From positions 3,906,001 to 3,970,000 of the forward strand of contig CM038998.1 of NCBI GenBank assembly GCA_017499595.2: DNA of 64,000 nt, given 5' to 3'. Position numbers and translations under genes: made by a program. The DNA is from Psilocybe cubensis. Lineage: Eukaryota. Of the stretch, positions 41,353 to 64,000 are shown one piece after another. The notes beneath the pieces are model-generated. The model saw only the letters and a program-made list of their open reading frames with translations, did not search any database and was not told where the DNA came from. Positions within the stretch are counted from its first letter, which is position 1, and each line of letters starts with the position of its first letter.

Positions 41353-43487
41353 TCAGTAATGATGGAGCCAGAAATAAGTTCCTTCAAGAACATCATTGAG
41401 CCGTGTAATCTCGGCGGAAAGGCTGTCTGGACTGTGCCACTCTGCACAGTCAAAGTCAATGATATATACTTTACCGTTCGAGTCGATCGTCAGATTGTCT
41501 GCTCGAATATCACAATGCCGAATGTCCGCTCGGTGTATACTTTCCAGTGCTCTTGTAAACGCTTCCCTGGAATTATCAACTCATTTAGTGTCACCCTGAA
41601 AAAAGGGGGAACGGGTTTGCCTACCTTTCTCCTTGAGTAGTGGTTACCTGCTCTGCAAATTTCCCCGTTCGCTCAATTTCCCGCTGTCGAAGAGTCTTCC
41701 CTCCGTCGGCCATCAAAAGTGCCATTGTATTGGACTCTGCGTCGTAAAACAGGCCATGTACATCAAGAACCCCTTCTATGTCGCTTGACCGGGACATACG
41801 GCAATATATTTCGAATTCAGCTTTAAGCTTGCTCTGCTGTTCCTCCGAAAACGCCAACTTCACGGCAAGATTTTCCCTCAGAATAGCACCCGACGATAGG
41901 ACGACTTCCGCCTGAGCAGGGTGAACGACACCTACTGCACCATGGCCGAGTGGCGCCAGTAATTTGAGTGTAATGTATTCCTTGTCGTTAAACTTCTTCT
42001 GCGTATAGACGTCCTTCGTCCAATCTGTGCTCTCGGTAGGCGAATAGCGCTTGCATGACTCCCCTATTCGTCTGAACGAAGAGGGTACCGATGATGAAAA
42101 TACGCCGTAGTCGAGACTAACAAGAGCGAGCTTGCGATGAGCCAGGTGCTTTGCAATCTAACCAGCTTAATTAAAATAAACAGTGGGACACTCGAGTCGG
42201 TGAAGCTTACTGAATCGTGAACCTCGGATGGGACACTGGGAGCCTCACTTAATCGGCGTCGTTTTGAGGGAGGACGTTCGAGCCCTTCGACGCGATCTGA
42301 GGAGCGTTTCACAGATTTTGATGCGGGAAACTCGCCTGGAGTCTCTCCTGCCTTCATCCGTTCCAACGCATCTTGAAGAATCGCAATGTGAAGCCCGATG
42401 TGGAGCTTCCTATAGTAGGGATTCTGTATATTAACGGTGTCGATTACACCAGATAAATACAATGTCTGCGTGGCCCTGTGTCTAATACCTATCCGTTCAT
42501 ACCGGCCACAGTGAAGAACCATGTAGGTAGTGTCGTGAATTGCCGCCTGCGTCCAGGCCTTGAGAAGATATCAACAAAAATTCAAAATGAGGATACTATG
42601 CTTACACATTGTAGGAAATGCTTCAAGTCGGGCCTATATCGTGCACGCTGTATAGTGGATGAAGGGATAACATATTTTCCTACTTTGGTGATACTGATCC
42701 TCTGGGACGATGTTTTGCTTGAGCTACGTTTGGGCAAAGTACTCATTCGAACGAGTCTGCTGGTAAGTGATTGGCCGTCGGGGGGTAGATTCGTACGAGT
42801 CAAAATTCTGTAGCCAATCGTTCGAGATGTTTCCCATTTGAATTCCATCCCTGTTGTTATATTCTGGAACACCTTCATGAATGGGCTGACCATGGGGAAG
42901 ATATGCCACATGGCCAGTCTAGGGTGTCTGTCTAAGAGTGTATTCAAGGTTTCCATAGTCGACCGAGACAGCTTTCCATCGAGTCCATTGTCCAAGGAGA
43001 TCCCCCCTTCCGGATCTTTGGTGATTGACAAAGAACTTTCCGCCATAAAACTGCCACTGTGCTCATGATCTACGAACTCAATGATTGACGGCCAAATCTT
43101 GATATGAGGATGGACGCATAACTTGGATGCAAACGCCTGAGCTATATCACCAACGTGAGTAAGGTAATACTGTCTGACCGTGCTAGCGTCTTTAAATTCG
43201 ATTTCGGGTATTTCCATGTTGAAGAAAAATTTTGCGGTTGAAAACTTGTTTCCTTTTCCCAAAAACGTGTTGACTGCGATATCGCAGGATGCAGATAATG
43301 TCTGTGGAATACCAGACAGATATACGACGCGTTGTAAGGCAAAGTTGGAGGCAAGATGTCGATCATAAAATTGGAAAGGTGCCACAATGAGATCTTTAGG
43401 ACGCTCCGCCTCGTCTTGGAACATGCCAGGATTATAATTAGCGTTGAAAACCTGGTTCAGAAATGATTGAACTCCTCTGGATGCCAT
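41353..43487 (-). CDS. Array gene A1: degenerate REase-like domain + atypical protein kinase with intact motifs (4 exons)
   Basis: Spliced model: LGHGAVGVV, AVKL, AEFEIY, IHRADIRHCDIRADN, IIDFD; TGA at 41355-41353. Confidence 0.85.
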
Positions 43488-43799
43488 TGAGGTCAGTCGA
43501 GTAGACAGCGAGTTTAGAAGTTATTGGCGGCACCAGTACAAAACGTTGAACAATGCTCAACCAATCCCAGTCAAGGCGTGAATTTCAAACACGATCATCT
43601 GACCTTGGTTTGTTTATTCACTAATGCTATTTTTAGCTATCGTTATGTTTGTTCTTGGAAGAGGCAGTGGCCACTCATAGCAATTAACGGGGAACAGAAT
43701 GTATATCTACGAATAATCTGCTGCTCTTCAGCGAGTAATACAGCCAAATTACGGATAAATTCATGTTATATTGTTGTGACTATACTATTAGCACTAAAA

Positions 43800-46321
43800 T
43801 TACCCCGAATCTGTGCTATTAGATACTCCTGTCTCTATTGGCGACACTTCCTCAGATCCAACACCGGTCATGTCAGGGGAAGAAACTGCCCGTATGGCAC
43901 TTTGAAAAGCATTGGCTTCATCGTTCTTAATTGCTGATGTTGCCGGGTGAGAAATATGCCCCAAGCTAATAACAGATACTTTACGCCCCTCGTTCATGAC
44001 GATATGATCGTTCATGATATTCCCGATTGAAATATTCAGATTGTGAAAGCTATCTAACGCAGTGAGATATGAATCCCTAAAAATGATGATTAGTCCCAAT
44101 TGGATGCCAATGTGCAGAAAAACGCGTGTGTGCGTACTTGAAGCGCTTGCAATGTGCTGCTGTTTCCAACGTGACGGGCTTTCCTCCGCTTTCCAGTATC
44201 AAAAACCTGTGATTTGGGAGTTTCGGATATTCAAATAATCCGTAGACTTGAACAATAGCGCCAACCCCTTTTGTGCGAAGATCCATGTAGTTGTTGTATT
44301 CCACCTCTAGCATCTTGGATAGTGGGGCATTTCGCGTCAGCTTGAGATATAATGGTTTAGAGTAGTATTTTGCAGCATTCATGGAGTGTTCTTCAACCAG
44401 GCCCAAGTAAACCACAAAAACCTTCTTGTCAAGCTGGGGCTCATAATTGAAGTCAAGGAATAGGCGCCCAGTTCGTTTGGGTTCACCAGTGGCGTCACAG
44501 TGAGAGCCGCGTTTTTGTAGATGCCATGTCCTGACGCCAAATGGGCCCCCGAGGCGCCCAGAAATGGAATTATCGTGAAATCGAATCGGAATTTCTGAGC
44601 ATTTTTCAAAAAGCGAAATGATAGCCTGCATGTAGGAGCGTGCAATGTTCCTCGCGTCAGTCATCTAACAAATTGCTTCTAACAATTAGGTACTTTACCT
44701 GGTCATGATTTTGCGGGTGTGTTTGTCCTGAACAAACCTTGGTGTATAACTCTGCCACAAGGTTTGTTTTAACATAAAAAGGTAGTTTGTCCACGTTTAT
44801 CCGGTACCCTGGTGATACTTCAGTCACAGGCAATGACAGCATAGATTCCAACTGTCGCGCACGGTCCAAAGCGTCGTTAAAGCCTAACAAAATGCAAGCC
44901 ACTAAGATTTTTGAGTGTGTTATACTTGAATTGGAGGTGCATTTGATCATGGGTGATAAGTATAAGGTCTGTTTCGCCCGGTCCCGGATGGCAACAAACT
45001 CCTCATTACCAGATGAAAAAATAGCCACCGACGCATCTTCAACTACGAGTTGAGTCCAAATCTGTTTGGGATCAAGTCGGAATCCAATTTTCAAATGACA
45101 TTCAGAAATGAAAGATATTATACTCACCTGTTGGCAGGCATACACTGAATTCTGTTTCGGAGCCCTTGACGATTTGTCCGAGTCTGGTTTGAAACGTTTA
45201 GAGGGCAGTTCTCGACTGCGCGCATCTTCTATGATCTGTAGAATGATATTCGAGTCAGGACTAGTGGGTCTTCCAGTCGTCTGCAACCTTCCATTAACCC
45301 GATGAGCGTTGGAAGAAGCCCGGCAAGTGGTTGACTTTTCGTTGTCGTCCGTCCTTTCTTCGCATGTTGACCAGGGAAATCTGCCTTCCAGACGATGCAG
45401 GTCTTCGAAAATATGAGGCGCGGCAACAAGACTTTTAAATTCGATGGTAACAAAAACGTCGAGGAGATATTTGCGAAGCAACTTCCAATCTGATTTCTGC
45501 TTGACAGTCAGGTGTTGCCCACCCGTTTTAGGGTCGATTGAAATTAGCACATCAGCGATACCCTCTTGTCGCTCAACCTTATTGGGCTTCTTCATACTGA
45601 AGATATCCTCCCAACTCTTTTTGAATAGAAGGCCAGAAGCCACCTGCAAGCAAGACTTATTTGACAGTATATACTGGTCAACCAGTTGGTCTTCGTTTTG
45701 GACTGGTCGAGGACGCTGTTGCTCGTTGTCTGAATTTGGAGGAGGACCAGCAGTGTGAAGATAGTCGGCACTCTCTTGAATGATATCATCGCAGTATTGG
45801 GAAAGAGCAGTAGGAAGGGTATCAAGGACAACCACTTCATTTAGTCGAAGGTCAGGATGAAGATGCTGATCAAACGGGTGGAATGGTCGCGTTTTAGTGG
45901 ATGGAACGTGATTGATGTCCTTTCTAAATTGCTTGGAAGGGCGTTGAAAAAATTTGTGGATCGGTGAACTCTTGGAGACGCCCTTGGAGTTCAATGCCTG
46001 TCCAGAGTTGGCTTGCTTGTGGGATCTTTTTAGAGACTTTCGTTGCACGGGAGACAATGCTGCGGTAGCATCACGTCGCGTCCTTGAGGTGGGGCCTCCC
46101 CGACCGTGAGGTATATCAGTCCTTGCAGAATGCTGATCGCTGACAGATGGGCAGGTGTCGGAAGGCTGCCCAGGGTGGTCATTGTCAACAGGTATCGACA
46201 GCGAGTCTAGTCGTGTACCCTCCTCCAGTAGGGAGTGAGCTCTTTCGTCAAGAGAATTGTTCGATGTTCGAAGTCTAGCAGAAGACCTGGTAGGTGCTTG
46301 CCTTTCCTTTCCTTTGGGCAT
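43800..46321 (-). CDS. Array gene B1: PD-(D/E)xK nuclease-like domain + pseudokinase (4 exons)
   Basis: NEDQL...GIADVLISID...FVTIEFKS...QQ|IWTQ. The kinase-fold C-terminus keeps LYLKL and LEVEY but has ISIGNIMNDH and ISLG in place of the HxD/N and DFx motifs. Confidence 0.82.
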
Positions 46322-47752
46322 TTGGCGAAGCGAGGTGAGCGTAGGGAATGGTTCGAATGTGCAGAACGCAATGAAATTTCATTCTGAATTTATATCTTCA
46401 GGTCCACTGGGTAGTGAGGATAATTGCTCTCATTGTTTATGAGCATTATTCATAATTGGGCGTTCTTCCAGATACAATTCCCTTGACAATCTAGGACTTC
46501 TTCGACTGACATGACATCGGAAAATATGTCTGTACTCATCGGCTACTACAAAAAGACAAAAAACAAAGTCGCCTTGGCACTGTGATTAGATGTAAGTTGT
46601 ATTTAAAATACCCTCAAATCTCAGGCTGTCTTTACACATTGTTGTAGTACAATTGTGCCATTACCCATGTTTGTTAGTCTCCTCGTTACCGTTTCTTTCT
46701 ATGTTGACAAGGTAGTGATAAAATGATACTGCATAGAATTTCTGTCGATTGATAATTAGCTTATTGTGCACCGTTGATCAATGATACCAGGTAGGAATGA
46801 GAAAGTGAACTAAAAATAGAGAGAAGACGTTGAGGTCAATTGTCTCTCATTTTCAGGAAGTTTGGTACAAAAAGATAGGCTGGAGTATTGTGTAATACGT
46901 TTACAGCTGCAGATCCATATATGTAGATTGTGTATCATTTACCTTTAAGTATGTTACGTTTTTTTAGTGTTTTGAGCGAACCAAATTCGAGCGCTTAGTC
47001 GCACTGGTGAACATGGCAAGGATATTATCACCGTGATCACACCAAATTTGCCCAGTTGCACCTTCCGATTGTCCAGACTTATACTAGTTGTATTTCAGAG
47101 AGTAAACGGAGTCAGTAAAATGGTTTTAACTTGGGAGTTTTCAGACCGTCTTCACAAATTGTTATTCATTTATCGTTAGATGAGCTTTATCAGGCGTCTC
47201 CATAAAGGCTTTGAAATAGGCGCTTCAGTGGATTTCCGTATCACGGGAGCATACATTCTTGGTTTTTGGAGTTCGAGAGGCTACCCATCCCAACTTATAT
47301 CCCAAGTATTCTGTGAGGAAAATCAGCAATTACATATTAGCGCCACCTAGACCCTTAACCAGCATGAGTATGTTATTCAGTGAGTTTGAGGTTGGCCTTG
47401 TCAGCTTACCTGATCCATCATGTTCAATTGCTTGAGAAGGTTAGGCAAATGAGTATGTAATTTTTGAGCAAATCGGGCACATCACACGACAAAAATTGCA
47501 AACCTGTATAATCATACAAAGGAGCAGAGCATACGACAAAAGTACCTCGAACCTCCCAACTGGCCTGTGAAAACCTGTCTCATGCTGCGGGGGCACATGC
47601 ATGGCTATGCGAGCAAAGACAAGATGTACGTTTGCATGAAGAGACTAAGACTGGAGAGTATGCGAGAGGCGAAAAACTGAACAGAGAAGTCGTATAACTG
47701 GAATGGAAATCGAATAAAGATAAGGAAAATATGATCAAAACTATGGGAAGAA

Positions 47753-49900
47753 TCAGTAATGAAGGCGCCGGATATAATTTCCTTCAAGAACTTCATTCAG
47801 CCTCGATATCTCGTCAGAAAGGCTGTCTGGACTGTGCCACTCTGCACAGTCAAAGTCAATGATATATACTTTACCGTCCGAGTCGATCATCAAATTGTCT
47901 GCTCGAATATCACAATGCCGAATGCCCGCTCGGTGTATACTTTCCAGTGCCCTTGTAAACGCTTCCCTGGAATTATCAACTCATTTAGTGTCACCCTGAA
48001 AAAAGGGGGAGCGGATTTGCCTACCTTTCTTCCTGAGTAGTCGTTACCTGCTCTGCAAATTTCCCCGTTCGCTCAATTTCCCGCTGTCGAAGAGTCTTCC
48101 CTCCGTCGGCCATCAAAAATGCCATTGTATTGGACTCTGCGTCGTAAAACAGGCCATGTACATCAAGAACCCCTTCGATATCGCTTAATCGGGACATACG
48201 GCAGTACATCTCAAATTCGGCTCTAAGCTTGCTTTGCTGCTCTTCTGAAAACGCCAGTTTCACGACCAGATTACCCTTCACGACAACCCCTGATGATAGC
48301 ACGACTTCCGCCTGGGCAGGATGAACGACGCCTACTGCACCACGGCCGAGTGGCGCCTGTAATTTGAGCGTAAAGTATTCCTGGTCCCGGAACTTCTTCT
48401 GCGCAAAGACATCTTTTGTCCAATCTGTGCTCTCGTTACGCGAATCCCGTATGCATGATTCTCCTATTCGTCTGAACGAAGAGGGAACCGACGATAAAAA
48501 CACGTCGTAGTCGAGACTGATAAGAGCGAGCTTGCGATGGACCAGGTCCTTGGCAATCTAGCCAGTCAAATTAAACGAATAATGGGATACTAGAGTCAAT
48601 GAAGCTTACTGAATTGTGAACCGCGGGTGGAACACTGGACGCCTTGCTTGATCGCCGCCGCTTTGGAGGACGTTCAAGCCCTTCTACGCGATCTGAAGAA
48701 CGTTTCAGTGATTTTGATGCGGGAAGCTTGCTCGATGTGCTCGGTATCTCTGAGGCCTTCATTCGTTCCAATGCATCTTGGAAAATCGCAATGTGAAGCC
48801 CAATGTGGAGCTTCCTATAACGAGGATTCTGTATGTTGACAGTGTCAATTACACCAGACAAATACAATGTCTGTGAAGCCCTGTGTCGAATCCCGATCCG
48901 TTCATAGCGACCACAATGAAGGATGATGTAGGTAGTGTCATGGATTGCCGCTTGAGTCCAGGCCTTGGAAGATATCAACGACTACAAACATTCGAGATGA
49001 ACATGCAACGCCTACACATTGCAGATAATGTTTAAAATCAGGTCGATATCGCGAACGTTGCACAGTTGATGGAGGGGTAACGTATCTTCCGACTTTAGCG
49101 ATGGTTGACCTCTCTAGCTTGTTTTTTTTCAAGCTCCTCCTACGCGAAGTGCCTGAACGACTGAGCTTGTTAGAAAGCGATTTGGCGTCGGTGGGAGGCA
49201 ATGTATGGGTTAAAAATCGATAACCTTCCGTATGCGAGTTCTCCCACTTGAATTCAGACCCTGTTGAAATTCTATGGAGCATTGTTGTAAATGGGCTAAC
49301 CATGGGAAAGACGTGCCATATAGCCAGTGAGGGGTGGTTGGTTAAGATTGCGTTTAATGTCTTTGTAGTCGAGGGTGATAGTTTTCCCTTGAGTTCATCC
49401 TCCAAAAAGACCCCTCCTTCAGGGTCCATAGTAACGGTTAAACAACTCTCCGATATGTAGCTTGCGCCAATGTAGTTATCAATCACGTTTTCCAAGATTG
49501 ACGGCCAACTCTTTACATGGGGATGAACGCATAGCTTAGATGCAAATGCCTGTGCTATAGGGCCAATATGAGTGCGGTAATAATCTCTGACCGTCTCAGA
49601 GTCCATAAATTTGATGTTGGGTAATTTCATGTTGAAAAAGGATTCGCCGGTTGAGAATTTATTTCTGTTTGCCAAAAAGGTGTTTACTGCGGCATCACAG
49701 GTTGCAGATAGTGCCTCAGGAATATTAGGAAGGTATACAACGCGTTGTAATGCAAAGTTGGAGGCAATATGTCGATCATAGAATTGGAAAGGTGCCACAA
49801 TTAGATCTTTTGGTAGTTCCGCCCCGTCTTGGATTATGTCGGGATTGTAATTGGCATTGAAAACCTGGTATAGAAAAGACTGGACTTCACTAGGTGTCAT
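47753..49900 (-). CDS. Array gene A2: degenerate REase-like domain + atypical protein kinase
   Basis: Paralog of A1 with the same exon layout: LGRGAVGVV, VVKL, RHCDIRADN, DFD. Confidence 0.85.
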
Positions 49901-50248
49901 CGAGGTTCGGCGAGTAGACAGCGAGTTAAGAAGTTGTTGGAGGCACTAGGACAAGGCGTTGAACAATGCAGCTTAACCAATGCCAGGCGATGGTGGGAAT
50001 TCAAACACGATCATCTGACCTTGTCCATAATGCTATTTTTAGTGGCGACGAATTTTAACAGTAATATAGAGTAATTTTGGGGCAACCAGACCCAAGTCTG
50101 CATCCTACAACATTGTAAATTTTAATTGTCAAATTTATCATGGCTACTTATGCTATTGGGTTTCCTGAAACTTAGAAACTTGCAATGTGGTGCCTGCATC
50201 GAATAATACGGTTAAATTCATGTTGTTTTATTGTCACTACCAGTAAAA

Positions 50249-52761
50249 TTACCCCTCGGACTCCGAGCTAGATACCGCATTCCCAGTTGGCAATGCTTCC
50301 TTAGTAGTGGTAATGTCAAAGGAAGGAAATGCTCGTATAGCATTGTGAAATGCTTTGACTTCATCCCTCTTAACTGATGATGTCGCGGGCTGGGAAACAT
50401 GAGCCAAACTAACAACAAATACATCACGTTCCTTGTTCATGACGATGTGATCGTTCATAATGTTTCCAATCGAAATATCCACGTCATGAAAGCTGTTCAA
50501 CGCAGCGAGATATGAACCCCTAGAAACAATGGTTAGTGCCAATCGGATGACAGCAGAACGAGTGTGTGCGCACTTGAAGCGCTTGCAATGCGCTGTTGTT
50601 TCCAAAGTGACCGGCTTTCCTCCACTTTCTAGTATCAGAAACCTGTGATTTGGGAGATCGGGATTTTCGAATAATCCGTATACCTGAACAATGGCGCGAA
50701 CGCCTTTCGCGCGAAGATCCGCGTAGTTGTCGTGTTCCACCTCTAGCATCTTGGATAGGGGCGCATTTCGCGTAAGCTTCATAAATAACGGTTTAGAATA
50801 GTATTTTGGAGCATTTCGAGGCTCTTCTTCGACAAGGCCCAGGTAAACCACAAAGACTTTCTTGTCAAGCTGGGACTCATAGTTGAAATCAAGAAATAAG
50901 CGTCCACTTGGTTCAGGTTCAAGGTCAACGGCGTCACGGTGAGAGCCGCGTTTCTGCAAGTGCCACGTTGTTGCACCAGGTGGACCCCCGAGGCGTTCGG
51001 AAATCGAACTATCGTGAAATCGAATCTGAATGTCTGAGCAATTTTCAAAAAGCGAAATAATGACCTGCAGCACAGAAGTGTGCAATGTTTCCATTATTTG
51101 CGTCAGTACCAACGAATTCCTTCTGAAAATGAGATACTTACCTGGTCATAATTCTGTGGGTGTGTTTGTTCTGAACGAACCTTATTGAATAACTCTGCCG
51201 TCAGGTTTTTTTTAACATAAAAAGGCAGTCTATCCACGTTTATCCGGTATCCTGGTGATACTTCACTCCCAGGTACGGTCGACATCGCCTCCAACTGTCG
51301 AGCACGTTCTAAAGCATCGTTAAAGCCTAATAAAATGCAAGCCACCAGAATTTTTGAGTGCGTTATACTTGAATTTGAGGTGCATTTAATCATGGGTGAT
51401 AAGTATAATGTCTGTTTTCCCCGGTCCCGGATGGCGACAAACTCCTCGTTGCCAGATGAAAAGATCGCCACCGAGGCATCTTCAACCACGAGTTGAGTCC
51501 AAATCTGTTAGGATTCAGATGTCAAATGCTACCTGGAAATGACTGATGACATGCTTACCTGTTGGCAGGCATAAACTGAATCCTGTTTCGCAGCGGTCTT
51601 CGACAAATTGTCCAAGTCTGCTTTCAAACGTTTTGGAGGCCGTTCTTGACTACGCGCATCTTCTATGAGCTGTAGAATGATACTTGAGTCAGGACTAGTG
51701 GGTCGCCCCGTCGTCTGTAGCCTTCCATTGACTCGATGAGCGTTGCCAGCAGAAGCCCGGCAAGTGGTTGACTTTTCGTTGTCGTCCGTCCTTTCTTGAC
51801 ATGTTGACCATGGAAATTTTCCTTCCAGACGAAGTAGGTCTTCGAAGATATGAGGCGCAGCGACAAGACTTTTGAATTCAAGAGTAACAAAAACGTCCAG
51901 GAGATATTTGCGAAGCAACTTCAAATCTGATCTGTGCTTGGCGGTCAGGTGTTTCCCACCCGTTTCAGGGTCAATTGAAATTAGCACATCAGCAATACCT
52001 TCCTGCCTCTCAACCTTGTTGGGCTTTGTCATGTTGAAGATGTCCTCCCAACCCTTTTTAAATAGAAGACCAGAAGCTACCTGCAAGCAAGCTTGATTTG
52101 ACTTTATATACTCGTTAACCAGTGCTTCCTCGTTTCTGACGGCATTAGGTTGCGAGGGAGCATCCGGAAGCGGACCTGCTGTGCGAAGATAGTCGGCATT
52201 CTCTTCAATAATATCATCGCAGTACTGGGAAAGAATAGTCGGAAGTGTGTCAAGAACAACTACCTCGTTCAATCGAAGGTCGGGATGAAGATGCTGATCG
52301 AACGGGTGGAATGGTCGGGTTTTGGTGGATGGGACGTGCTTTATGTTCTTTCTGAATTCCTTAGAAGGCTGTTGAAAAAATTTATGGATAGGTGAACTCG
52401 CTGCGGACGCGAAGACGCCCTTGGTGCCCGATGTTTGGCCAGAGTTGGCTTGCTTGTGGGATCTTTTCATAGACTTTCGTTGCACAGGAGATAATGTTGC
52501 GGTAGTATTACGTCGCGTCCTTGAGGCGGAGCCTTCCCGACCCTGAGGTATATCAGTCCTTGCTGTAGAGTGTAGCTCGCTGACAGACGGACTGGTGCCG
52601 GAAGACAGTCCGGAGTGACCATTGTCTACAGGAATCGTCGATGAGTTTAGTCTTGTACCCTCCTCAGGTAGGGAGTGAGCGCTTTCGTCAAGAGACTTGT
52701 TCGAAGTTTGAAGTCTAGCAGAAGACCTGGTAGGTGCTTGTCGAGCCTTTCCTTTGGACAT
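50249..52761 (-). CDS. Array gene B2: PD-(D/E)xK nuclease-like domain + pseudokinase
   Basis: Paralog of B1: NEEAL, GIADVLISID, FVTLEFKS, QQ|IWTQ; ISIGNIMNDH and VSLA in the kinase catalytic positions. Confidence 0.82.
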
Positions 52762-54256
52762 TTGGTGTAATGAGGCGGTAGGGAATGTTTCGAATGCTTA
52801 GAATGCAATGTAAATTCATTCTGAATTTATATACTCAGTTCCAGGGTGATAAAGATAATTGCTCTCCTCGTTTATGAGCATTATTCACAATTGGGCGTCC
52901 TTCCAGATACCATTCCCTTGACGATCCGGGAGTTCTTCGACTGACTTGACATCGGAAAAATGTCTGCACTCATCGGCTGCTACAAAAAGACAAAAAAACA
53001 AAGTGTCCTTGGCAATGTGACGACTAAATGTAAGTTGTATTTAAAGATATCCTCAAATCTCAGGCTGTCATTACACATTATTGTAGTACAATTACAATTG
53101 TGTGTAGTATCCCTGTTTGTTGGTCGCCTCGTTACCGTTTTTCTACGCTGACACGGTAATGATAAAACTATACTGCGATACCGTATAGTTTCCCCTCTGA
53201 TTGATGATTAGCTTATTGTGCAACCTGTTACACAAATACCGAAAGCAGCGGTAAGAATTATTACATACAAAAGGGTGAAAGTGAACTAAAAATAGATATA
53301 AAGCGCTAAAAGTCAATTGTCTCTCAATGCCAGGAAGTTCAGTACCGAAAAATGGGCTGGAATGTTGTGTAACACATTGATAGCTGAGATATATATCTGT
53401 GAGTATGTTGCTTATGATTTGCTTTTAAGTGTGTTACGTTTTTTTAGTGTTTTGAGCAAAACAAATTTGAGCGCTTAGTGTCACTGGTGAACATGCCAAG
53501 GATATTATCACTGTGATCACACCGAAATTTGCCCAGATGCACCGTTCAATTGTCCATACTTATACAAACCGCATTTAGAGTAAACGAAGTCAGTAAAATA
53601 GTTTTAACTTTGGGAGGTTTCTGACCGTCTTCACAAATTGTTATTCATTTTATCGTTAGATGAACTTTATCAGGCGAGTCCATAAAGGCCTTGAAATAGG
53701 CGCTTCAGTGGATTTCCGTATCACGGGAGTATACATCCTTAATTTTTGGAGTTCGAGAGGCTGCCCATCCCAGCTCGTATCCCAAGTATTTTGTGGAGAG
53801 AATCATCAAATTACTTAATAGCGCTAGGCCCCTTTACCAGCATGAGAATGTACATTCAGTGAGTTTGAGGTTGGCCTTGTCAGCTTACCTGTTCAGCTTA
53901 ATCATTCTTTGGATGATCCAGCATGTTCAATTGCTTGAGAAGGTTAGGCAAATGAGTATGTAATTTTTGAGCAAATCGGGCGCATCACACGACAAAAATT
54001 GCAAACCTGTACTTAATCATGCAAAGGAGCAGAGCATACGACAATAGTACCTCGAACCTCCCAACTGGGCAGTGAAAACCTGTCCCGTGCTGCGGGGGCA
54101 CATGCATGATTATTCGAGCAAAGGCGAGATGTACGTTTGCATGAAGAGACTAAGACTGGAGAGTATGTGAGAGGCAAAAACTCAACAGAGAAGTCGTATA
54201 ACTAGAATGTAAATTGAATAAAGATAAGGAAAATATGATCAAAACTATGGGAAGAA

Positions 54257-56394
54257 TCAGTAATGAAGGCGCTGGATATAGTTTCCTTCAAGAACTTCAT
54301 TCAGCCGTGATGTCTCGTCAGAAAGGCTGTCTGGACTGTGCCACTCCGCACAGTCAAAGTCAATGATATATACTTTACCGTCCGAGTCGATCGTCAGATT
54401 GTCTGCTCGAATATCACAATGTCGAATATCCGCTTGGTGTATACTTTCCAGTGCCCTTGTAAACGCTTCCCTGGAATTATCAACTCATTAAGTGTCACCC
54501 TGCGAAAAGGAGGACCGAATTTACCTACCTTTCTTCTTGAGTAGTGGTTACCTGCTCTGCGAATTTCCCCGTTCGTTCAATTTCTCGCTGTCGAAGGGTC
54601 TTCCCTCCGTCGGCCATCAAGAGTGCCATTACATTGGACTCTACATCGTAGAACAAACCATGCACATCAAGGACCCCTTTGATGCTGCTTAATCGAGACA
54701 TACGGCAGTACATCTCAAATTCAGCTTTAAGCTTGCTCTGCTGCTCTTCTGAAAACGCCAGTTTCACGACCAAACTACCCTTCACAACAACCCCCGATGA
54801 TAGCATAACTTCCGTCTGGGCAGGGTGAACGACGCCAACTGCACCGCGGCCGAGTGGCGCCAGTAATTTGAGTGTAATGTATTCCTTGTCGTTGAACTTC
54901 TTCTGCGTATAGACGTCCTTCGTCCAATCTGTGCTCTCGGTAGGCAAATCGCGCTTGCATGACTCCCCTATTCGTCTGAACGAAGAGGGCACCGATGATG
55001 AAAATACGCCGTAGTCGAGACTAACAAGAGCGAGCTTGCGATGAACTAGATGCTTTGCAATCTAACAGCATAATTAAATGAACCGCGGGACACTGGAATT
55101 AATGAAGCTTACTGAATCGTGAACCTCAGTTGCAACACTGGGCACCTTGCTTGATCGCTGCCGCTTTGGAGGAGGCCGCTCGAGCCCTTCAACGCCATCC
55201 GAAGAGCGTTTCACAGCTTTGGAAGCAGGGGGTATACTTGATGTCTCTGAGGCCTTCATTCGTTCCAATGCATCTTGAAAAATTGCAATGTGAAGCCCAA
55301 TGTGGAGTTTCCTATAACAAGGATCCTGTATGCTGACTGTGTCGATTACACCTGATAAATAAAGTGTCTGCGTCGCCCTGTGTCGAATCCCAATCCGTTC
55401 ATAACGACCACAATGAAGGATGATGTAGGTAGTGTCATGGATTGACGCTTGTGTCCAGGCCTTGGAAGATATCAGCAACTACAAACATTCGAGATCAATA
55501 TGCGACGCCTACACATTGCAGGTAATGTTTAAAATCAGGTCGATATCGCGAACGTTGCACAGTTGATGGAGGGGTAACGTATTTTCCGACTTTTGCGATG
55601 GTTGACCTGTCTAGCTTGTTTTTTTTTAAGCTCCTATGCGAAGTGCCTGAACGACTGAGCTTGTTAGAAAGCGATTTGGCGTCAGTGGGAGGTAATGTTT
55701 GAGTTAAAAATCGATAGCCTCCGGTATGCGACGTCTCCCACTTGAATTCTGTCCCTGCTGAAATACTTTGAAGTATTGTTGTAAATGGGCTAACCATGGG
55801 AAAGACGTGCCACATAGCTAGTGTGGGGTGGTTGGTTAAGAGCGCGTTCAATGTTTTGATAGTCGGTTGAGTCAGTTTACCCTTGAGTTTGTTGCTTAAG
55901 AAGACCCCCCCTTTAGGATCTCTAGTGATGGTTAAAATACTTTCCGACATGTAACTTGCGCCAATGTGGTCATGAAACATGAACTCCAAGATTGATGGCC
56001 AGGTTTTGACGTGAGGATGAACGCATAGCTTAGACGTAAATGCCTGTGCTATAGGGCCTATATGAATGCGGTAATATTGTCTGACCGTCCTAGCGTCCGT
56101 GAATTCGATTTCGGGTATTTCCATCTTGAAAGAGTATTCGTCGGTTGAGAATTTGTTCCCGTTTGCCCAAAAAGTGTTGACTGCAATGTCACAGGTTGCA
56201 GATAACACTTGAGGAATGTCAGAGAGACATACAACGCGTTGTAAGGCAAAATTGGAGGCAACATGGCGATCATAGAAATTGAAAGGTGCCACAATCGGAT
56301 CTTTAGGACGCTCCGCCTCGTCCGGGATTATATCAAGATTGTAATTCGCGTTGAAAACCTGGTTCAGAAATGGCTGAACTCTACTGGGTAACAT
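54257..56394 (-). CDS. Array gene A3: degenerate REase-like domain + atypical protein kinase
   Basis: ATG 56394 (MLPSRVQPFLNQVFNANYN) aligns with paralog starts; LGRGAVGVV, RHCDIRADN, DFD; TGA at 54259-54257. Confidence 0.85.
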
Positions 56395-56724
56395 CGAGGT
56401 CCGTTGAGTAGGTAGAGAGTCGAAAAGTTGTTGGAGGCACCAGTACAAACACACAATAAACAACAACGACAACAACAACTTAACAACACAATATGGTCAC
56501 GAGCCCTAACAGGGAAGTTGCATAAGTAATCTCACCAAATGATTGTGGAAACTTCCATTGAGGTTAGCAGCCAGGCTTTGCAATACTACTAATATTGAGA
56601 AAGTAAATTACAAGTTAAGAGGCTTACCACTTACACTGTGCACAAGCTAGATCGCTGGTATATGTCTTGTTGATGTACAGAATATATCAAAATTAGATGT
56701 ATATTGTACATTACCGAGATACTT

Positions 56725-58874
56725 TCAGTATAAAAGGCGTTGTTTGTATTTACCTTCCAGGATCTCATTTAAACGCAATGCTTCAGCAGTCAGGGAATCT
56801 GGTGAAGCCCATTCGGCACAGTCAAAGTCTATGATGAAAACCCTACCATCAGGAGTGACCGTCAGATTGTCCGCTCGGATATCCTGATGCCTTATATCTG
56901 CATTGTGGATACTTTGAAGAGCTCTTTTAAATGCGTCCCTAAAATGTTAGTGTAGCTAATCAGTGGCTGATGTGCAAGTTGAGATGTAATAAACCTACTT
57001 CTCCTTCGCCGTTGTTTTAACCTGTTCAGCAAATGCACCTGTGCGTTCGATCTCCCGTTGTCGAAGTGTTATACCACCATTGGCCATTAACAGTCCCATC
57101 ACATTAGATTCCGCATCAAAGAACAGGCCATGCACATCAAGAATACCTTCAATATCGGTGGCTCTTGACATGCGGCAATAAATTTCGAATTCATTCTTTA
57201 AGCGTGCTTGCTGCTCTTCGGTGAATGCTAACTTGAAGGCAAGATTCTCTTTCAGAACGCCTCCGGACTGCAGTGCAACCTCCGCTTGAGCAGGATGAAC
57301 AACCCCAATTGCACCATGACCGAGTGGCGCGGATAATTTGAGCGTAAAGTACTCTTGGCTATTGAATTTTTTCTGTTCATTTGAACCTTTGGTCCAGTCT
57401 GTGTCGACGGTGGGAGAATGACGTTTGCAAGATTCTCCAATTCGGATAAATGAGGATGGAACCGGTGAACAGAATGCATCATAGTCTAAACTGACAAGAG
57501 CTAGTTTGCGGTCAACCAGTTGAACGCTGATCTATTTTGTCAAATGAGATAGAATATGAGATAGAATAGTATAGTAAACGGACAATAAACCCACTGATTC
57601 GTGCGCCAAGGTTGTTGGAAGACCAGTTTTTCGCCGTTTCTTAGAACGTGGTGACTCGTATTCTTCATCATCACCCAAGGAACGTTTCTTGGCTATAGTA
57701 GATTTAGAAGGAGCATTGAGAGCACTCATACGCTCTAATGCATCTTGAAAAATGGCAATATAAAGACCTATATGAAGTTTCCTATATCGAGGATCTATGC
57801 TGTTGACCGTGTCAATCAATCCAGAGAGATACAATGTCCGTGAGGCTCTATGACGAATTCCGATGCGTTCATACCGTCCGCAGTTGAGGACAAGGAAGGT
57901 CGTATCGTGGATTGCTGCTTGTGACCATGCCTTTCGTATCATGTTAGATATCCTAAACTGTTCAAAAAGATGTGCCCGTCACGTACATGTTGAAGATAAT
58001 GACGAAAATCAGGCCGGTATCGTTTTCGCTTAGTAACGGTGGGCGTAGTGACAAATTTTCCTGCCTTCCCAAGTGTATTCCTATCGGTTAGGTGTCCACC
58101 TGGAATTTTCCTACGAGACACTCTACGAACGTGTACAAGGTTGGAGAGCATTGTGCCATCGGGAGGTAGAGTTACACGCGTCTTGAAGCGATAACCGGCC
58201 GTGCGAAGTGGTTCCCATTTAAACTTGGTGTCATTGACCGAATTTTGCATTGTTCTCGTAAATGTATCAACCATAGGGAAAACATGCCACATAGCCAACC
58301 TGGGGAAAGTATCCAAAAGAACATTGAGAGTATCCGTGGTCGATTTCGGTAGCTCGTCCTGCTGCGTCCAAAATACACCTCCTGATGGCGCTTCGCATAC
58401 AGCCAAGTGTCCTTCTGCCATATAGAATGTGGCATCCTTGTCGTGTTCCCTAAATCGAATGACTGTTGGCCAAGTTTCGACTTCTGGATGAACACAGAGC
58501 TTGGATAAGTAGGCCTGGCATGTGTCACCAACATGGGTGGCATAATAGTCTCGAACACCGCTAGCGTCCTTAAACTTGGTACCAGGAATATCCTTGCCGT
58601 AGATGTATCCAGTGGCTGAAAACTTATGACCGCTTGTGATAAACCGGTTCACAGAGACATCACAAATTTTAGATAGAAGCTGTGGAATGAAGGGAGTGTG
58701 TACGACGTTGTGCAAAATGTAGTCCGATCCAAGGTGCCGATCGTAGAACGTAAAAGGTGGGTTCATTGGTTCACTAGGCTGATCAACTGTGCTCTGTATC
58801 AAATCAGGATTGTAGTTGGCATTGAAAGCTCTGTGTAAGAAAAACTGGAATGTGTCTTCTTCTTCAAACGACAT
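56725..58874 (-). CDS. Array gene A4 (more divergent): degenerate REase-like domain + atypical protein kinase
   Basis: FNANYNP, RYRPDFRHYLQH|AWSQAAIHDTT, LGHGAIGVV, AFKL, IRHQDIRADN, IIDFD; TGA at 56727-56725. Confidence 0.85.
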
Positions 58875-59499
58875 TATGTGAGAGATTGGTCTGGCGCATA
58901 GGATTGTGCGGTGAGGTTGATATTGTAAACTGGAACGCGTTCTTTGACGTCATGTTGAATTTGAATGATTGAATCCAAATCATCTGACGTTGTAGTTTTT
59001 CCCAGGCTTTTAGCAACTGATGGCTTGAATCTGGCAAACAAATTTGCAGTGAGCGTTGCAAGTGCATGAATATTATTATTCCAATTATAGTCGAAGTACT
59101 ACACTATTATAGACTGTTTCTTCTCGAGATTGTCTTTTGCTATAGCTGCTGTAAATTGTGACATCTCCTCGCTCATTAATTCGTCTGATGGAAAACGAGA
59201 TAGAAGATAAATCAAAATCAAAGAAACTTGGTGACGATGGTTCATGAGGATAGACTCACCCCATCATGAGGCACCTTCAGGGGTCATGGTGGATAAAGCT
59301 TAAAGAGATCAGAGGGATCCAGAAATGACCTTAGTTTTGTAGGGCTATGTGATTGTGCGAGTAAACCCAAGATGTACGTTTGCATGAAGAAAATAAGACT
59401 CGAGAGTGTTCGAGAGGCGGAAACTAACCAAAGGAGTTGTATAATTAGAATGTAAATTGAATGAAGATAAGAGAAATATGATGAAAACTATGGCAAGAT

Positions 59500-61637
59500 T
59501 CAGTAATGAAGGCGCCTGATATAGTTTCCTTCAAGAACTTCATTCAGCCTCGATATCTCGTCAGAAAGGCTGTCTGGACTGTGCCACTCTGCACAGTCAA
59601 AGTCAATGATATATACTTTACCGTCCGAGTCGATCGTCAGATTGTCTGCTCGAATATCACAATGTCGAATATCCGCTTGGTGTATACTTTCCAGTGCCCT
59701 TGTAAACGCTTCCCTGGAATTATCAACTCATTAAGTGTCACCCTGCGAAAAGGAGGACCGAATTTACCTACCTTTCTTCTTGAGTAGTGGTTACCTGCTC
59801 TGCGAATTTCCCCGTTCGTTCAATTTCTCGCTGTCGAAGGGTCTTCCCTCCGTCGGCCATCAAAAATGCCATTGTATTGGACTCTGCGTCGTAAAACAGG
59901 CCATGTACATCAAGAACCCCTTCTATGTCGCTTGACCGGGACATACGGCAATACGTTTCAAATTCAGCTTTAAGCTTGCTCTGCTGCTCCTCCGAAAACG
60001 CCAACTTCACGGCAAGACTTTCCCTCAGAATAGCACCCGACGATAGGACGACTTCCGCCTGAGCAGGGTGAACGACACCTACTGCACCATGGCCGAGTGG
60101 CGCCAGTAATTTGAGTGTAATGTATTCCTTGTCGTTAAACTTCTTCTGCGTATAGACGTCCTTCGTCCAATCTGTGCTCTCGGTAGGCGAATAGCGCTTG
60201 CATGACTCCCCTATTCGTCTGAACGAAGAGGGTACCGATGATGAAAATACGCCGTAGTCGAGACTAACAAGAGCGAGCTTGCGATGAGCCAGGTGCTTTG
60301 CAATCTAACCAGCTTAATTAAAATAAACAGTGGGACACTCGAGTCGGTGAAGCTTACTGAATCGTGAACCTCGGATGGGACACTGGGAGCCTCACTTAAT
60401 CGGCGTCGTTTTGAGGGAGGACGTTCGAGCCCTTCGACGCGATCTGAGGAGCGTTTCACAGATTTTGATGCGGGAAACTCGCCTGGAGTCTCTCCTGCCT
60501 TCATCCGTTCCAACGCATCTTGAAGAATCGCAATGTGAAGCCCGATGTGGAGCTTCCTATAGTAGGGATTCTGTATATTAACGGTGTCGATTACACCAGA
60601 TAAATACAATGTCTGCGTGGCCCTGTGTCTAATACCTATCCGTTCATACCGGCCACAGTGAAGAACCATGTAGGTAGTGTCGTGAATTGCCGCCTGCGTC
60701 CAGGCCTTGAGAAGATATCAACAAAAATTCAAAATGAGGATACTATGCTTACACATTGTAGGAAATGCTTCAAGTCGGGCCTATATCGTGCACGCTGTAT
60801 AGTGGATGAAGGGATAACATATTTTCCTACTTTGGTGATACTGATCCTCTGGGACGATGTTTTGCTTGAGCTACGTTTGGGCAAAGTACTCATTCGAACG
60901 AGCCTGTTGGTAAGTGATTGGCCGTCGGAGGGTAGATTCGTACGAGTCAAAGCTCTATAGCCAATCGTTCGGGATGTTTCCCATTTGAATTCCACTCCCG
61001 TCGTTATATTCTGGAACACCTTCGTGAATGGGCTGACCATGGGGAAGATATGCCATATGGCCAGTCTAGGGTGCCTCTCTAAGAGTGTATTCAAGGTTTC
61101 CATAGTCGACCGAGACAGATTTCCATCGAGTCCATTGTCCAAAGAGATCCCCCCTCCCGGATCTTTGGTGATTGACAAAGAACTTTCCGCCATAAAACTG
61201 CCACTGTCCTCATGATCTACGAACTCGATGATTGACGGCCAAATCTTGATATGAGGATGGACGCATAACTTGGATGCAAACGCCTGAGCTATATCACCAA
61301 CGTGAGTAAGGTAATACTGTCTGACCGTGCTAGCGTCTTTAAATTCGATTTCGGGTATTTCCATGTTGAAGAAAAATTTTGCGGTTGAAAACTTGTTTCC
61401 TTTTCCCAAAAACGTGTTGACTGCGATATCGCAGGATGCAGATAATGTCTGTGGAATACCAGACAGATATACGACGCGTTGTAAGGTCAAGTCGGAGGCA
61501 AGATGTCGATCATAAAATTGGAAAGGTGCCACAACTTTCAGATCTTGAGGACGCTCCGCCTCGTCTTGGAACATGCCAGGATTGTAATTGGCGTTGAAAA
61601 CCTGGTTTAGAAATGATTGAACTCCTCTGGATGACAT
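59500..61637 (-). CDS. Array gene A5: degenerate REase-like domain + atypical protein kinase (near-copy of A1)
   Basis: ORF 60211-60669 translates identically to ORF 42064-42522; RHCDIRADN, DFD; TGA at 59502-59500. Confidence 0.85.
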
Positions 61638-62010
61638 TGAGGTCCGTCAAATAGACAGCGAGTTAAGGATTAATTGAAGAGGCCAGTTACTACATACCTG
61701 AGTGGGCGTTGAACAAAGCGACATTGAAGAGTTGCAAACGCGATCATGTGATATTCGCGGCAACTGGCATAAGGGCTATTGTTGGAGTTTGAGACGACAG
61801 TATATCGACATACAATATCTGACGAATCTTGTGGGTATAATTAAGTTATATGTCTAAACGGTGTAATACAATAGTGATAATAATGATGCTGATTTATGAA
61901 AAGTACAGTTTGACTCAGAGCAACTGAGAGTAAGTGCCAAACGACATGGGGTATTATACAAACTACAAAATACATATCTGAAACTCGAAGTAACAGCATA
62001 TTTTCCAAGT

Positions 62011-64000
62011 TCAGGAATCGTACCTACTTTTCCCTTCAAACATTGCATTTAAGCACCTCATATCCTCCTTCATGGCGATATCATCTGGGTATCGGTATTC
62101 GGCACTGTCGAAGTCGGTGATGAAGGCATTACCATTCGAGTCAATCGTTAGATTGTCGGCTCTGATATCGTTATGAAAGACCTTGGCCAATCGGAGGCTT
62201 TCTACTATACGCCTAAAAACTTCTCTGAAAAATAGTCGATCAGACGGTGCATGGACTCAGCATATACATTGCATACCTCTCTTTCGGAGTGGTAGTCACC
62301 TTGTCAGCGTAAGACCCTGTTCGCCCCATCTCTCGTTTTTGAAGGGAATTACCTCCATCTGCCATCAGCAAGCCCATTGTTTTCGATTCCGCGTCATAGA
62401 AAAGACCATGGACATCGAGAATCCCTTCAATTCCGTCGACTCGAGACATATGACAATAAATATCAAATTCATTCCTCAGTTTTTCTTGATTTTTTTCTGT
62501 GAATGCGAGCTTGAAAACCAGTCTCTCCCTTAGCACCTCTCCAGACTCTAATTTAACTTCGGCCAGAGCAGAGTGGGCGGTTCCAATCGCACCATTGCCA
62601 AGTGGGGCAAGCAATGTGAGAGTGAAGTATTCCTTGGATTCGAACTTGTTCTGTTCAAATGCATCCTTTGTCCAATCTGTTTCCTCCCTTGAAGATATCC
62701 GCTTGCATGATTCTCCGATTCGAATAAACGAAGAAGGCACAGAGGAAGACAGTGCGTCATAGTCCAAGCTAACAAGAGCAAGCTTACGATCAACCAAGTG
62801 TTTCCCAATCTAAGTACAGGAAATTAGCACGGAACCAAGCATTCAGTAGGGCTGCTCACATTACTAGGTATATAAGTTGGAACCATTGCGTCCCCTGCTC
62901 GACGGCGCTTTTTGGATCGGAGAATATCTTGATATTCGAGACTATCTGAACCACGCTTCTTTCCTTTTGATCCCAATTTCTGTTGGACAATGTCCTGAGA
63001 TCTTGTTCTTTCCAGAGCATCTTGATATATCGCAATGTGAAGCCCGACATGAATCTTCTGGTAATGTGGATCTTTGATGTTGACCGTATCAATGACTTCA
63101 GAAAGATAGAGCGTCTGCGATGCTCTATGTCGGATCCCAATACGCTCATATCGCCCACATTGGAAAGTCATGAATGTCGTATCGTGAATGGCCGCTTGCG
63201 CCCAAGCCTTTCAGAAGTGGTCAATAACTGTCGTATCCATTCTGCGTGCATCGCAAATACTTACATGCTCCAAGTAATGCCGTAGACTAGGGCGATATCT
63301 ATTTCTCTCTGTAGCGAAAGGTGGAGATATGGTCTTTTTTACTCGAGCGATACTCTTTCTATTTGATGTACTTCTTCTGACTGAAAGGCCTTTCCCAGTG
63401 GTTCCGAGAGCACCGTTGAGCTTTTCAGCCAGCATTTGCGAATCTGGAGGTGGAATGGTCTGGGTTATGAAGCGATATCCAGCAGTACGGGACTCGCGGC
63501 CCCATGAACGGATATCTGGTGCTATATTTTGCAACATTGTCGTAAACGTATCAACCATGGGGAAGTGATACCACATTGCCAACCTAGGAAACCTTTTCAG
63601 AAGCGCTAGGAGTTCATATTCGGTCGATTGTGATAAACCTTCCTTGAGCTCATCATCTAGATGGATCCCTCCAGAGTGGTCCTCGTACAATGTCAAATAC
63701 GCTTTCGAAATGTAAAATGACTTTGGTTCGTTGACAATGTGTGAGGTATACGAAAAGGGTGAATTCCCAGTTTCTGAATCAGGATTAACGCAGAGTTTGA
63801 AGAGATATGCTCGAGATATGGCCCCAATGTGGATATTATAGAACACGTTAACAGAGCGGGCATCGCTGAATCTAGCCTGTGCCATATCTAAACAGCGTTC
63901 AAATACTTGTGAAGATATTGCATGGCCGTTCGCCAAGAATTCCTGAACGGTAGAGTCGCAAATTTTGGATAAGAGGTGCGGGATGGATGGAAGAAGTACA
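62011..64000 (-). CDS. Array gene A6 (divergent, 5' end outside the window): degenerate REase-like domain + atypical protein kinase
   Basis: RLAMWYHFPM, RYRPSLRHYLEH|AWAQAAIHDTT, LGNGAIG, VFKL, VFHNDIRADN, ITDFD; TGA at 62013-62011. Confidence 0.82.

Follow-up and report, generated by a model that had tools for sequence, protein, structure and literature searches.

Reciprocal loss of nuclease and kinase motifs in a tandem gene array of Psilocybe cubensis: a candidate split Spok-like module

Why would a genome keep, side by side, two classes of the same gene that have each lost the active site retained by the other? The question is raised by eight genes in a 64,000-nucleotide stretch of the mushroom Psilocybe cubensis (positions 3,906,001 to 3,970,000 of the 4.68-Mb contig CM038998.1, GenBank assembly GCA_017499595.2; this whole stretch is called the window here, and positions are counted from its first letter). 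A sequence-only reading of the window had sorted these genes into class B, with a nuclease-type motif and a dead kinase, and class A, with the reverse, and had proposed a two-component toxin–antidote, drive or defence system. We find that the division into two classes holds throughout the array, that it probably goes back to an old split in a family of Agaricomycete proteins, and that A and B genes recur as neighbours. This pattern is compatible with a division between two genes of the functions that the Spok meiotic drivers of Podospora combine in one protein.

Hidden Markov models (HMMs) of the two domains, used in a six-frame scan of the window, place family sequence only within 41353–64000, on the minus strand throughout, as exactly eight genes with zero stray fragments. 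The sole domain match outside the array (31840–32016) corresponds to the catalytic loop in a kinase gene that does not belong to the family. From left to right the genes are A1, B1, A2, B2, A3, A4, A5 and A6, that is, six A and two B (Table 1). Our gene models, built on GT..AG introns that are conserved between paralogues, leave all eight open, each with four exons and with introns of 47–77 nucleotides. A and B proteins are homologous end to end at 21–25% identity, compared with 51–95% among A proteins and 78% between B1 and B2, and profiles of the A-type and B-type N-terminal domain (N-domain) match one another across 340 columns (hhalign probability 100, E value 5.8e-68). The co-oriented, four-exon and full-length homologous genes of the sequence-only reading are thus confirmed by scan, models and alignment alike.

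The two classes part company at their active sites. Both B genes carry D, E-x-K (on predicted strands in B2) and, in the long helix that follows, Q; in B2 the nuclease-type motif comprises D258 and E295-x-K297, with codons within 51871–51990. At eight kinase positions the residues are D, K, K, E, I, N, H, S in the B genes and G, G, K, E, H, D, N, D in the A genes. The B kinase part (about residues 520–750 of B2) therefore retains only the beta3 Lys and the alphaC Glu, and the glycines of the G-loop, the catalytic Asp, the Asn and the DFD Asp are gone. The C-terminal half of B has no Pfam match, and its fold matches include RNase L and Ire1. With its catalytic residues lost, it is a predicted pseudokinase that may still bind nucleotide through the retained Lys–Glu pair.

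All six A genes, in turn, lack E-x-K, with WH[IV]FPM in five and WYHFPM in A6, and all six retain GxGxxG, Lys, alphaC Glu, HxDxxxxN and DFD. Pfam scans of exons and whole proteins gave kinase matches in A only. The Pkinase profile (PF00069) matches A3 with an E value of 6.9e-11 and 42.5 bits against a cut-off of 31.7, over profile positions 4–150 of 263 only; A4 scores 27.7 bits, below the Pfam cut-off. A model of A3 matches the FGFR2 kinase (Foldseek E value 8.9e-9). With the cut-off passed by A3 and all of the motifs present in the six genes, the A proteins belong to the eukaryotic protein kinase superfamily. They end about 30 residues past DFD, and the A kinase domain is short and atypical. 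This corrects the sequence-only reading, whose account of the motifs kept and lost was otherwise borne out in both B genes and in all six A genes.

Two features outside the active sites also distinguish the classes. Between the ExK strand and the Q helix, B proteins have an insert (B2 residues 321–358, window about 51688–51801) with the pattern C-QER...C...H-R-x-NGR...TGR...PD, in which Cys, Cys and His are conserved (the Cys/His part at B2 residues 321–342). The insert is modelled with low confidence, and the A version is shorter and lacks the Cys and His. Five of the six A proteins have basic clusters (KRRR, KKRRK) in a disordered linker between the domains, for example at A1 residues 390–397. 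These could be nuclear localisation signals; the same pattern was not found in B1 or B2.

Purifying selection acts on all four domain types, including the two that appear dead. Ratios of non-synonymous to synonymous divergence (dN/dS, by Nei–Gojobori) are 0.16 for the B N-domain, 0.17 for the B pseudokinase, 0.20–0.37 for the A N-domain and 0.18–0.27 for the A kinase. Over whole genes they are 0.32 for A1–A5, 0.23 for A2–A3, 0.22 for A1–A2 and 0.24 for B1–B2.

Evidence of transcription comes from two sequencing runs of one study, X1 and X2. Their record calls neither of them RNA and the label is a guess; we treated both as RNA-derived because their contigs are spliced. In the stretch used for mapping contig joints, which excluded A6, these contigs confirm 8 of the 24 modelled introns by joints with CT..AC ends on the plus strand: A1 intron 3 (41565>41624 in X2), A2 intron 1 (48962>49015 in X2), B2 introns 1 and 2, A3 intron 1 (X1) and all three A4 introns (X1 and X2). 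Five more joints cross between paralogues at intron borders, such as that between A1 and A5 at the border of intron 1 (42557>60752 in X2). None of these splice joints occurs in a DNA run, X3, and in X1 and X2 no spliced contig confirms the B1 introns or B2 intron 3. A1/A5, A2, A3, A4 and B2 are transcribed, and splicing follows our models at the confirmed introns. Intact frames, constrained domains and the splicing of A genes and of B2 together uphold the view of the sequence-only reading that the classes are specialised and not decaying.

The contigs of X1 and X2 come from another strain and contain many single-nucleotide polymorphisms. At window 51199–51206, in B2 exon 2, their spliced contigs are one base short in a run of eight T (eight A on the coding strand). 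Such a loss would stop B2 at residue 502 of 775, past the nuclease domain and ahead of the pseudokinase. The DNA run X3 matches the window at this site, and the difference could be a strain variant, slippage or a homopolymer error.

The array also records how it grew. Its left part consists of tandem units of about 6.4–6.5 kilobases (kb), in each of which a B gene is followed downstream, on the minus strand, by an A gene, and start-to-start spacings are 6400–6413 nucleotides for A1–A2, 6428–6443 for B1–B2 and 6494–6504 for A2–A3. The B and A genes would thus have been duplicated as one unit, which fits the synonymous divergence (dS) of 0.66 for A1–A2 and 0.50 for B1–B2. A1 and A5 share 95% of their amino acids with a dS of 0.066, and A5 appears to be a recent copy of A1. 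As these two near-identical genes lie 18 kb apart, they also suggest that the array has undergone gene conversion or very recent copying. For A1 and A3, dS differs about threefold between the halves of the gene (0.93 in the N-domain and 0.30 in the kinase), a contrast that points to gene conversion in the kinase part.

The division into A and B extends far beyond this locus. A profile of A and B together found 60 relatives in Agaricales, plus further P. cubensis copies, and the genera include Galerina, Gymnopilus, Hebeloma, Agrocybe, Flammula, Cyclocybe, Hypsizygus, Mycena, Volvariella, Pleurotus and Pluteus. A B-only profile searched against 1.84 billion cluster representatives gave 690 matches at E ≤ 1e-3, 410 at E ≤ 1e-10 and 67 at E ≤ 1e-30. 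The named representatives (30 were looked up) are all from Agaricomycetes, except for one unnamed record, and the family appears to be Agaricomycete-wide. Across 17 diverse B-type N-domain proteins, the E, D and ExK residues are invariant in all 17, as is F-x-W-x2-C, and the second Cys and the His are nearly invariant.

For a census of active sites, 208 proteins were divided into 219 units, whose diagnostic residues we took from HMM alignments. In this sample, which is biased in that it was seeded with the A+B and B searches and includes the best 150 of the 690 B-profile matches, 143 units are complete: 52 have the nuclease motif intact and the kinase lost (N+K−), 79 have the reverse (N−K+), 11 have neither (N−K−; 6 of these are B-clade members mis-scored through alignment offsets) and only one has both (N+K+). 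Of the remaining units, 40 have an intact nuclease motif without a complete kinase part and 36 have no readable nuclease or kinase region. The single unit with both motif sets, a condition found in none of the eight window genes, is P0095, a protein of 674 amino acids from Amanita muscaria. Its motifs are D..ExK, GxG, Lys, Glu, HxDxxxxN and DFG, the kinase motifs having been checked by eye.

A tree of the 143 complete units (581 columns, FastTree with LG+gamma, midpoint root) separates the classes. The B clade has 57 tips, of which 51 are N+K− and none is kinase-live (support 0.989), and the A side has 80 tips, of which 75 are N−K+ and none is nuclease-live (support as a clade 0.252). Six units are sister to the B clade (support for the grouping 1.0), namely an Amanita trio (P0095, P0119 and P0120) and three units of Botryobasidium and Phellopilus. 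These last three keep the kinase and part of the nuclease triad, and they are, like P0119 and P0120, nearly bifunctional. Because such rare extant forms carry both active sites, or nearly so, the ancestor was probably bifunctional. The simplest reading of the tree is one old split into A and B, with the complementary site long retained in each clade.

A and B have also tended to stay together. We read linkage outside the window from locus tags, consecutive accessions, contigs and fused gene models. In at least nine genera, A and B turned out to be immediate neighbours, members of a shared array or joined in a single fused model. By locus tag, Galerina marginata has 253433 (B) next to 253434 (A), and Gymnopilus junonius has 1843847 (B) beside 1843848, 49, 51 and 53 (A). 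Agrocybe chaxingu has g4667 (B) and g4668 (A) and, on one contig of 45.7 kb, g1617 (A), g1618 (B), g1620 (B) and g1624–26 (A). Flammula alnicola has the consecutive accessions KAF8954477 (A) and KAF8954478 (B), Pluteus cervinus has 960740 (B) and 960743 (A), and B and A lie on one scaffold in Hebeloma, Hypsizygus, Agrocybe pediades and Cyclocybe. Among the seven gene models that span two full units, five combine A with B, in the order B–A in Cyclocybe, Laccaria and Tephrocybe and in the order A–B twice in Pluteus; fused models of this kind are most likely merged neighbouring genes. The linkage is strong as an observation, although it is not yet a statistical result. The idea of a two-component system draws real support from this recurrent linkage, which the window by itself could not reveal. 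As a correction to the sequence-only reading, the split is not peculiar to this locus; it belongs to an old, family-wide dichotomy.

The nature of the N-domain is approached mainly through predicted structures. AlphaFold2 models reach a mean predicted local distance difference test score (pLDDT) of 85.8 with a predicted template modelling score of 0.85 for A3, and a mean pLDDT of 68.5 for B2, in which residues 1–117 fall below 50. The core of the B2 model runs helix, strand, strand (with D258 at its start), helix, strand (E295-x-K297), helices, strand and hairpin, an order that fits a PD-(D/E)xK core with insertions. An ESM Atlas model of A3 residues 1–370 aligns to bacterial HSDR_N and HSDR_N_2 clusters (template modelling score 0.60 by row, 118–119 residues), and also to an Eco57I-type methylase/nuclease cluster, a YhaV toxin cluster, and unnamed and kinase-bearing clusters from Ascomycota. 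By language-model features the nearest named Pfam family is SPOK2_N, at 0.92 for A3 (186 of 256 features) and 0.93 for B2 (194 of 256); SPOK2_N accounts for 5 of 30 B2 matches and 8 of 30 named A3 matches in the Atlas feature search. Negative Pfam scans do not bear on this resemblance, because the SPOK2_N family (PF27653) was outside the Pfam set scanned. The B-type N-domain profile matched 0 Protein Data Bank (PDB) sequences at E ≤ 10, and the 17 B-type N-domain proteins gave nothing consistent against Pfam and PADLOC. Foldseek searches of full-length B2 and A3 against the PDB, a wider fold search with B2 and a search of A3 against viral structures were filled by kinases and barely probed the N-domain. 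On these models, a restriction endonuclease (REase) fold and a distant kinship with Spok are likely for the N-domain.

The comparison with Spok is instructive on both sides. SPOK3 is described as a coiled coil, a domain of unknown function, a PD-(D/E)xK domain with HsdR as its best HHpred match, a Cys/His cluster and an ELK-like kinase (PMC6660238). In the same account, the K240A mutant of Spok3 loses killing and keeps resistance, and toxicity is seen with the D667A mutant and with a truncation that lacks the kinase, both of which the wild type rescues in trans (PMC6660238). Killing appears to act by DNA degradation, according to a report on Fusarium that also describes a yeast assay (PMC12693581), and both this report and the earlier account describe the way in which the kinase of Spok counters its nuclease as still unknown (PMC12693581, PMC6660238). 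As in Spok, a predicted PD-(D/E)xK nuclease-type domain precedes a short atypical (ELK-like) kinase near the C terminus of the array proteins, and HsdR, the best match of the Spok3 nuclease (PMC6660238), recurs in the alignment of the A3 Atlas model to HSDR_N. By analogy, killing by nuclease and resistance by kinase, with rescue in trans, would map onto B and A.

Differences are also plain. The two active sites lie on separate paralogous genes here and on one polypeptide in Spok; the B insert, C-x12-C-x7-H, is another insert than the Cys/His cluster of Spok and sits inside the nuclease domain; the array genes have three introns, whereas Podospora Spok coding regions are described without introns (PMC12693581); and the array belongs to Basidiomycota, whereas the Spok homologues reported in PMC6660238 are from Ascomycota. 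Judged by these features, the mushroom proteins are not Spok members in the narrow sense.

The REase–kinase architecture itself is widespread, according to work cited in PMC12693581. Crinkler (CR) effectors such as CRN8 of Phytophthora likewise couple an REase-superfamily domain to a protein kinase domain, and a review attributes the toxicity to the REase and its regulation to the kinase (PMC5289972). The array proteins show no N-terminal ubiquitin-like header or secretion sign (in Pfam at E ≤ 1 only; no signal-peptide or header-specific search was made), their host is a saprotrophic mushroom, and their activities would be split between paralogues. Copies that keep only protection are known from the antidote-only wtf genes of fission yeast and from the resistance-only Spok2 allele of Podospora strain A (PMC12693581). 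The excess of A copies would be a parallel if A acts as an antidote; the wtf proteins are unrelated to the array family. In full-text searches, which covered the main text of papers, we found no report of Spok relatives or of split nuclease/kinase pairs in Basidiomycota. What appears to be new here is the distribution across the family, the two old A and B clades, the recurrent A–B linkage and the resemblance of the N-domain to HsdR and SPOK2_N.

We tentatively favour, at a little short of an even chance, a module of two linked genes: B would be an effector that cuts DNA, and the kinase A would control or neutralise it in trans, with the functions of Spok divided between two genes. We read B and A as one module because they have been retained as neighbours and co-duplicated. 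An ancestor with both active sites would have undergone a single split into the A and B clades. B would have kept the nuclease triad while its kinase turned into a pseudokinase, now a regulatory or docking module, and A would have preserved a kinase with all its catalytic residues and lost ExK. B and A would then be natural counterparts of Spok3 D667A (toxic and rescued in trans) and K240A (resistance only), and the surplus A copies would be protectors that act on their own or variants of different specificity. Anatomy, motifs, selection, transcription, phylogeny and linkage are observed; we infer the nuclease activity and toxicity of B, the control of the nuclease by the kinase, and any role in drive, conflict or defence. 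It is possible, if rather doubtful, that the two are an old and widespread Agaricomycete killer–protector pair, derived from a Spok-like bifunctional protein, with B as toxin, A as antidote and spare A copies as protectors, which would act in basidiospore killing or in nuclear competition in the dikaryon. A predicted complex of A3 (residues 1–658) with B2 (residues 150–480) scored 0.00 with controls not run, and has no bearing on binding either way.

Reciprocal loss of sites, with both dead domains conserved, would also suit an obligate heteromeric enzyme. A and B would be its subunits, derived from a bifunctional homo-oligomer, with one live nuclease and one live kinase per complex and an ordinary job in DNA processing, repair or defence signalling that involves neither toxin–antidote logic nor selfish behaviour. 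Dead/live heterodimers are common among nucleases, and in the paralogue pairs XPF–ERCC1 and Mus81–Eme1 one member keeps the nuclease site that its partner has lost, as A and B would by analogy. In B the kinase fold retains its Lys–Glu pair, a common trait of allosteric pseudokinases, and RNase L and Ire1, found among the fold matches of the B pseudokinase, likewise attach a kinase-fold domain without catalysis to a nuclease, although the nuclease fold of their KEN domain is unlike the array N-domain. Conserved adjacency and co-duplication fit such an enzyme as well. The 6:2 excess of A and the existence of large A-only arrays are ill-suited to a fixed stoichiometry, however, and a lineage-restricted, multi-copy family of variable copy number would be more typical of conflict than of housekeeping, so that we regard this enzyme as unlikely. 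The adjacency might instead be a by-product of local duplication, with A and B as two functionally unrelated old subfamilies of a tandemly expanding family. Arrays of like genes do occur (A3–A6, the A–A fused models P0123 and P0128, and JR316_0001287/88/92), and A types are found in many species in which no B has been seen. Yet the A/B split is old and both clades run across many Agaricales families, while immediate B–A neighbours recur in at least nine genera, most of the fused two-unit models pair A with B, and the duplicated unit in this array is one B plus one A; we hold such a by-product, too, to be unlikely.

The kinase of A could also switch B on. The sequence-only reading had named an activator kinase as an alternative, and in a non-self or immune device, as opposed to a driver, the dead nuclease domain of A would be a nucleic-acid sensor and its kinase the output that activates an executioner nuclease B, in allorecognition between nuclei or strains or in defence against mycoviruses or mycoparasites. 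The many diverged A copies per genome would suit this, as would the greater protein divergence of the A N-domain than of the kinase (dN 0.18 versus 0.066 for A1–A3). As dS differs in the same direction, the contrast in dN may reflect only gene conversion in the kinase part; no sensor or NOD-like receptor (NLR)-type domain is fused to the family proteins, and the nearest NLR-type gene in the window lies about 25 kb from the array. We think such a device quite unlikely. Least probable by far is that one class is a set of decaying pseudogenes. Each class has indeed lost catalytic residues in one domain, but both persist as large clades, and we reject decay on the open frames of all eight genes with their canonical introns, on dN/dS values of 0.16–0.37 and on the spliced transcripts.

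The favoured two-gene module has its own difficulties, which we gather here. A-only arrays exist, and A and B are paralogues by tandem duplication, so adjacency alone could be historical; A copies outnumber B in this array, and many species in our match lists show A types with no B type seen. B1 is nearly without RNA-like cover in X1 and X2, from which we draw no conclusion about its expression. Residues that are invariant in A and B alike (D358, E422, R427 and R429 in B2) make up a second conserved site, so that A, which we call nuclease-dead only for its loss of ExK, is putatively so. The N-domain has no sequence match in Pfam, PADLOC or the PDB, and its REase fold is argued from the Atlas structure search with motif and strand order. 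In hhalign comparisons with 50 EcoKI-type HsdR nuclease domains, A-only, B-only and mixed N-domain alignments reached a probability of 0.1–0.2, below the 0.4 of a kinase-domain control. The cluster C-x3-C-x13-C-x5-H-x7-H that is described between the nuclease and the kinase of Spok (PMC6660238) is absent from A, and there is no N-terminal coiled coil, the A3 model from AlphaFold2 having no long N-terminal helix (no dedicated coiled-coil predictor was run). The link to REase–kinase and Spok proteins drawn in the sequence-only reading is plausible in view of the alignment to HSDR_N and the nearness of SPOK2_N. The missing Cys cluster, the missing coiled coil and the negative HsdR profile comparison speak against membership in Spok proper.

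If the pair is what we take it to be, Spok-like biology would extend from Ascomycota to mushroom-forming fungi. If it is, moreover, a killer–protector pair, it would be the first molecular candidate for spore or nuclear drive in these fungi as well as a natural experiment that separates the two Spok functions. Each Spok-like activity could then be expressed, purified and mutated alone, and the existing yeast toxicity assay would be directly applicable. Whatever its function, the family offers a clear example of duplicates that lost complementary active sites, with both dead domains conserved across Agaricales.

Table 1. Genes of the array, its tandem units and other features of the window. Positions are those of the window; aa, amino acids.
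Feature	Position	Strand	Length	Exons	Remarks
A1 (JR316_0001337)	41353..43487	-	658 aa	42606-43487, 42211-42558, 41625-42157, 41353-41566	N-domain without ExK; kinase motifs intact
B1 (JR316_0001338)	43800..46321	-	773 aa	45128-46321, 44699-45061, 44138-44625, 43800-44076	D..ExK intact; predicted pseudokinase; modelled by homology with B2
A2	47753..49900	-	661 aa	49016-49900, 48610-48963, 48025-48557, 47753-47966	
B2 (= P0002)	50249..52761	-	775 aa	51559-52761, 51142-51504, 50574-51064, 50249-50519	
A3 (JR316_0001341 = P0008)	54257..56394	-	658 aa	55513-56394, 55113-55460, 54529-55061, 54257-54470	
A4 (JR316_0001342 = P0009)	56725..58874	-	656 aa	57987-58874, 57595-57930, 56999-57531, 56725-56938	
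A5 (JR316_0001343)	59500..61637	-	659 aa	60753-61637, 60358-60705, 59772-60304, 59500-59713	
A6, 3' part	62011..64000	-	609 of 684 aa (full protein P0010)	63265-63999 (cut by window end), 62860-63207, 62277-62809, 62011-62224	
Tandem units	41353..54500	.	about 6.4-6.5 kb each		One B plus one A downstream on the minus strand; direct-repeat families D1-D15
Rpb1 of RNA polymerase II	3372-7046				
NACHT-WD40 NLR-type gene	12236-16298	-			Two large open frames
Second kinase	about 30.3-32.0 kb				
CAND1/TIP120	36215-39461				

The array takes in JR316_0001337 to JR316_0001344, and the public P. cubensis proteins that are identical to products of the window are named JR316_0001337 to JR316_0001343. 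Letter for letter, B2 is identical to P0002, A3 to P0008, A4 to P0009, and the A6 part to the C-terminal 609 amino acids of P0010. The public models of JR316_0001337 (P0006), JR316_0001343 (P0007) and JR316_0001338 (P0001) differ from our paralogue-consistent models of A1, A5 and B1. Those of A1 and A5 lack a stretch of the most conserved motif region of the N-domain; P0006, at 627 amino acids, is 31 residues shorter than our A1 and misses part of a conserved hairpin region. Intron 1 of B1 (66 nucleotides) is open in frame.

Further A-type copies lie on the same contig outside the window (JR316_0001287, 1288 and 1292) and on another contig (JR316_0013327). Extra A-type proteins of P. cubensis are P0011, P0013, P0014 and P0045, plus P0012, which occurs in UniRef only. 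The ratio of A to B in the species is at least 10:2, with two B-type proteins seen.

In its gene content the window gives no hint that a transposon or mobile island surrounds the array. Ordinary genes make up the remainder, among them those for Rpb1, ribosomal protein L19e, a Tudor-knot protein, the second kinase and CAND1/TIP120. The NLR-type gene on the minus strand combines a NACHT/NPHP3_N match (E value 4e-26) with a long WD40 array.

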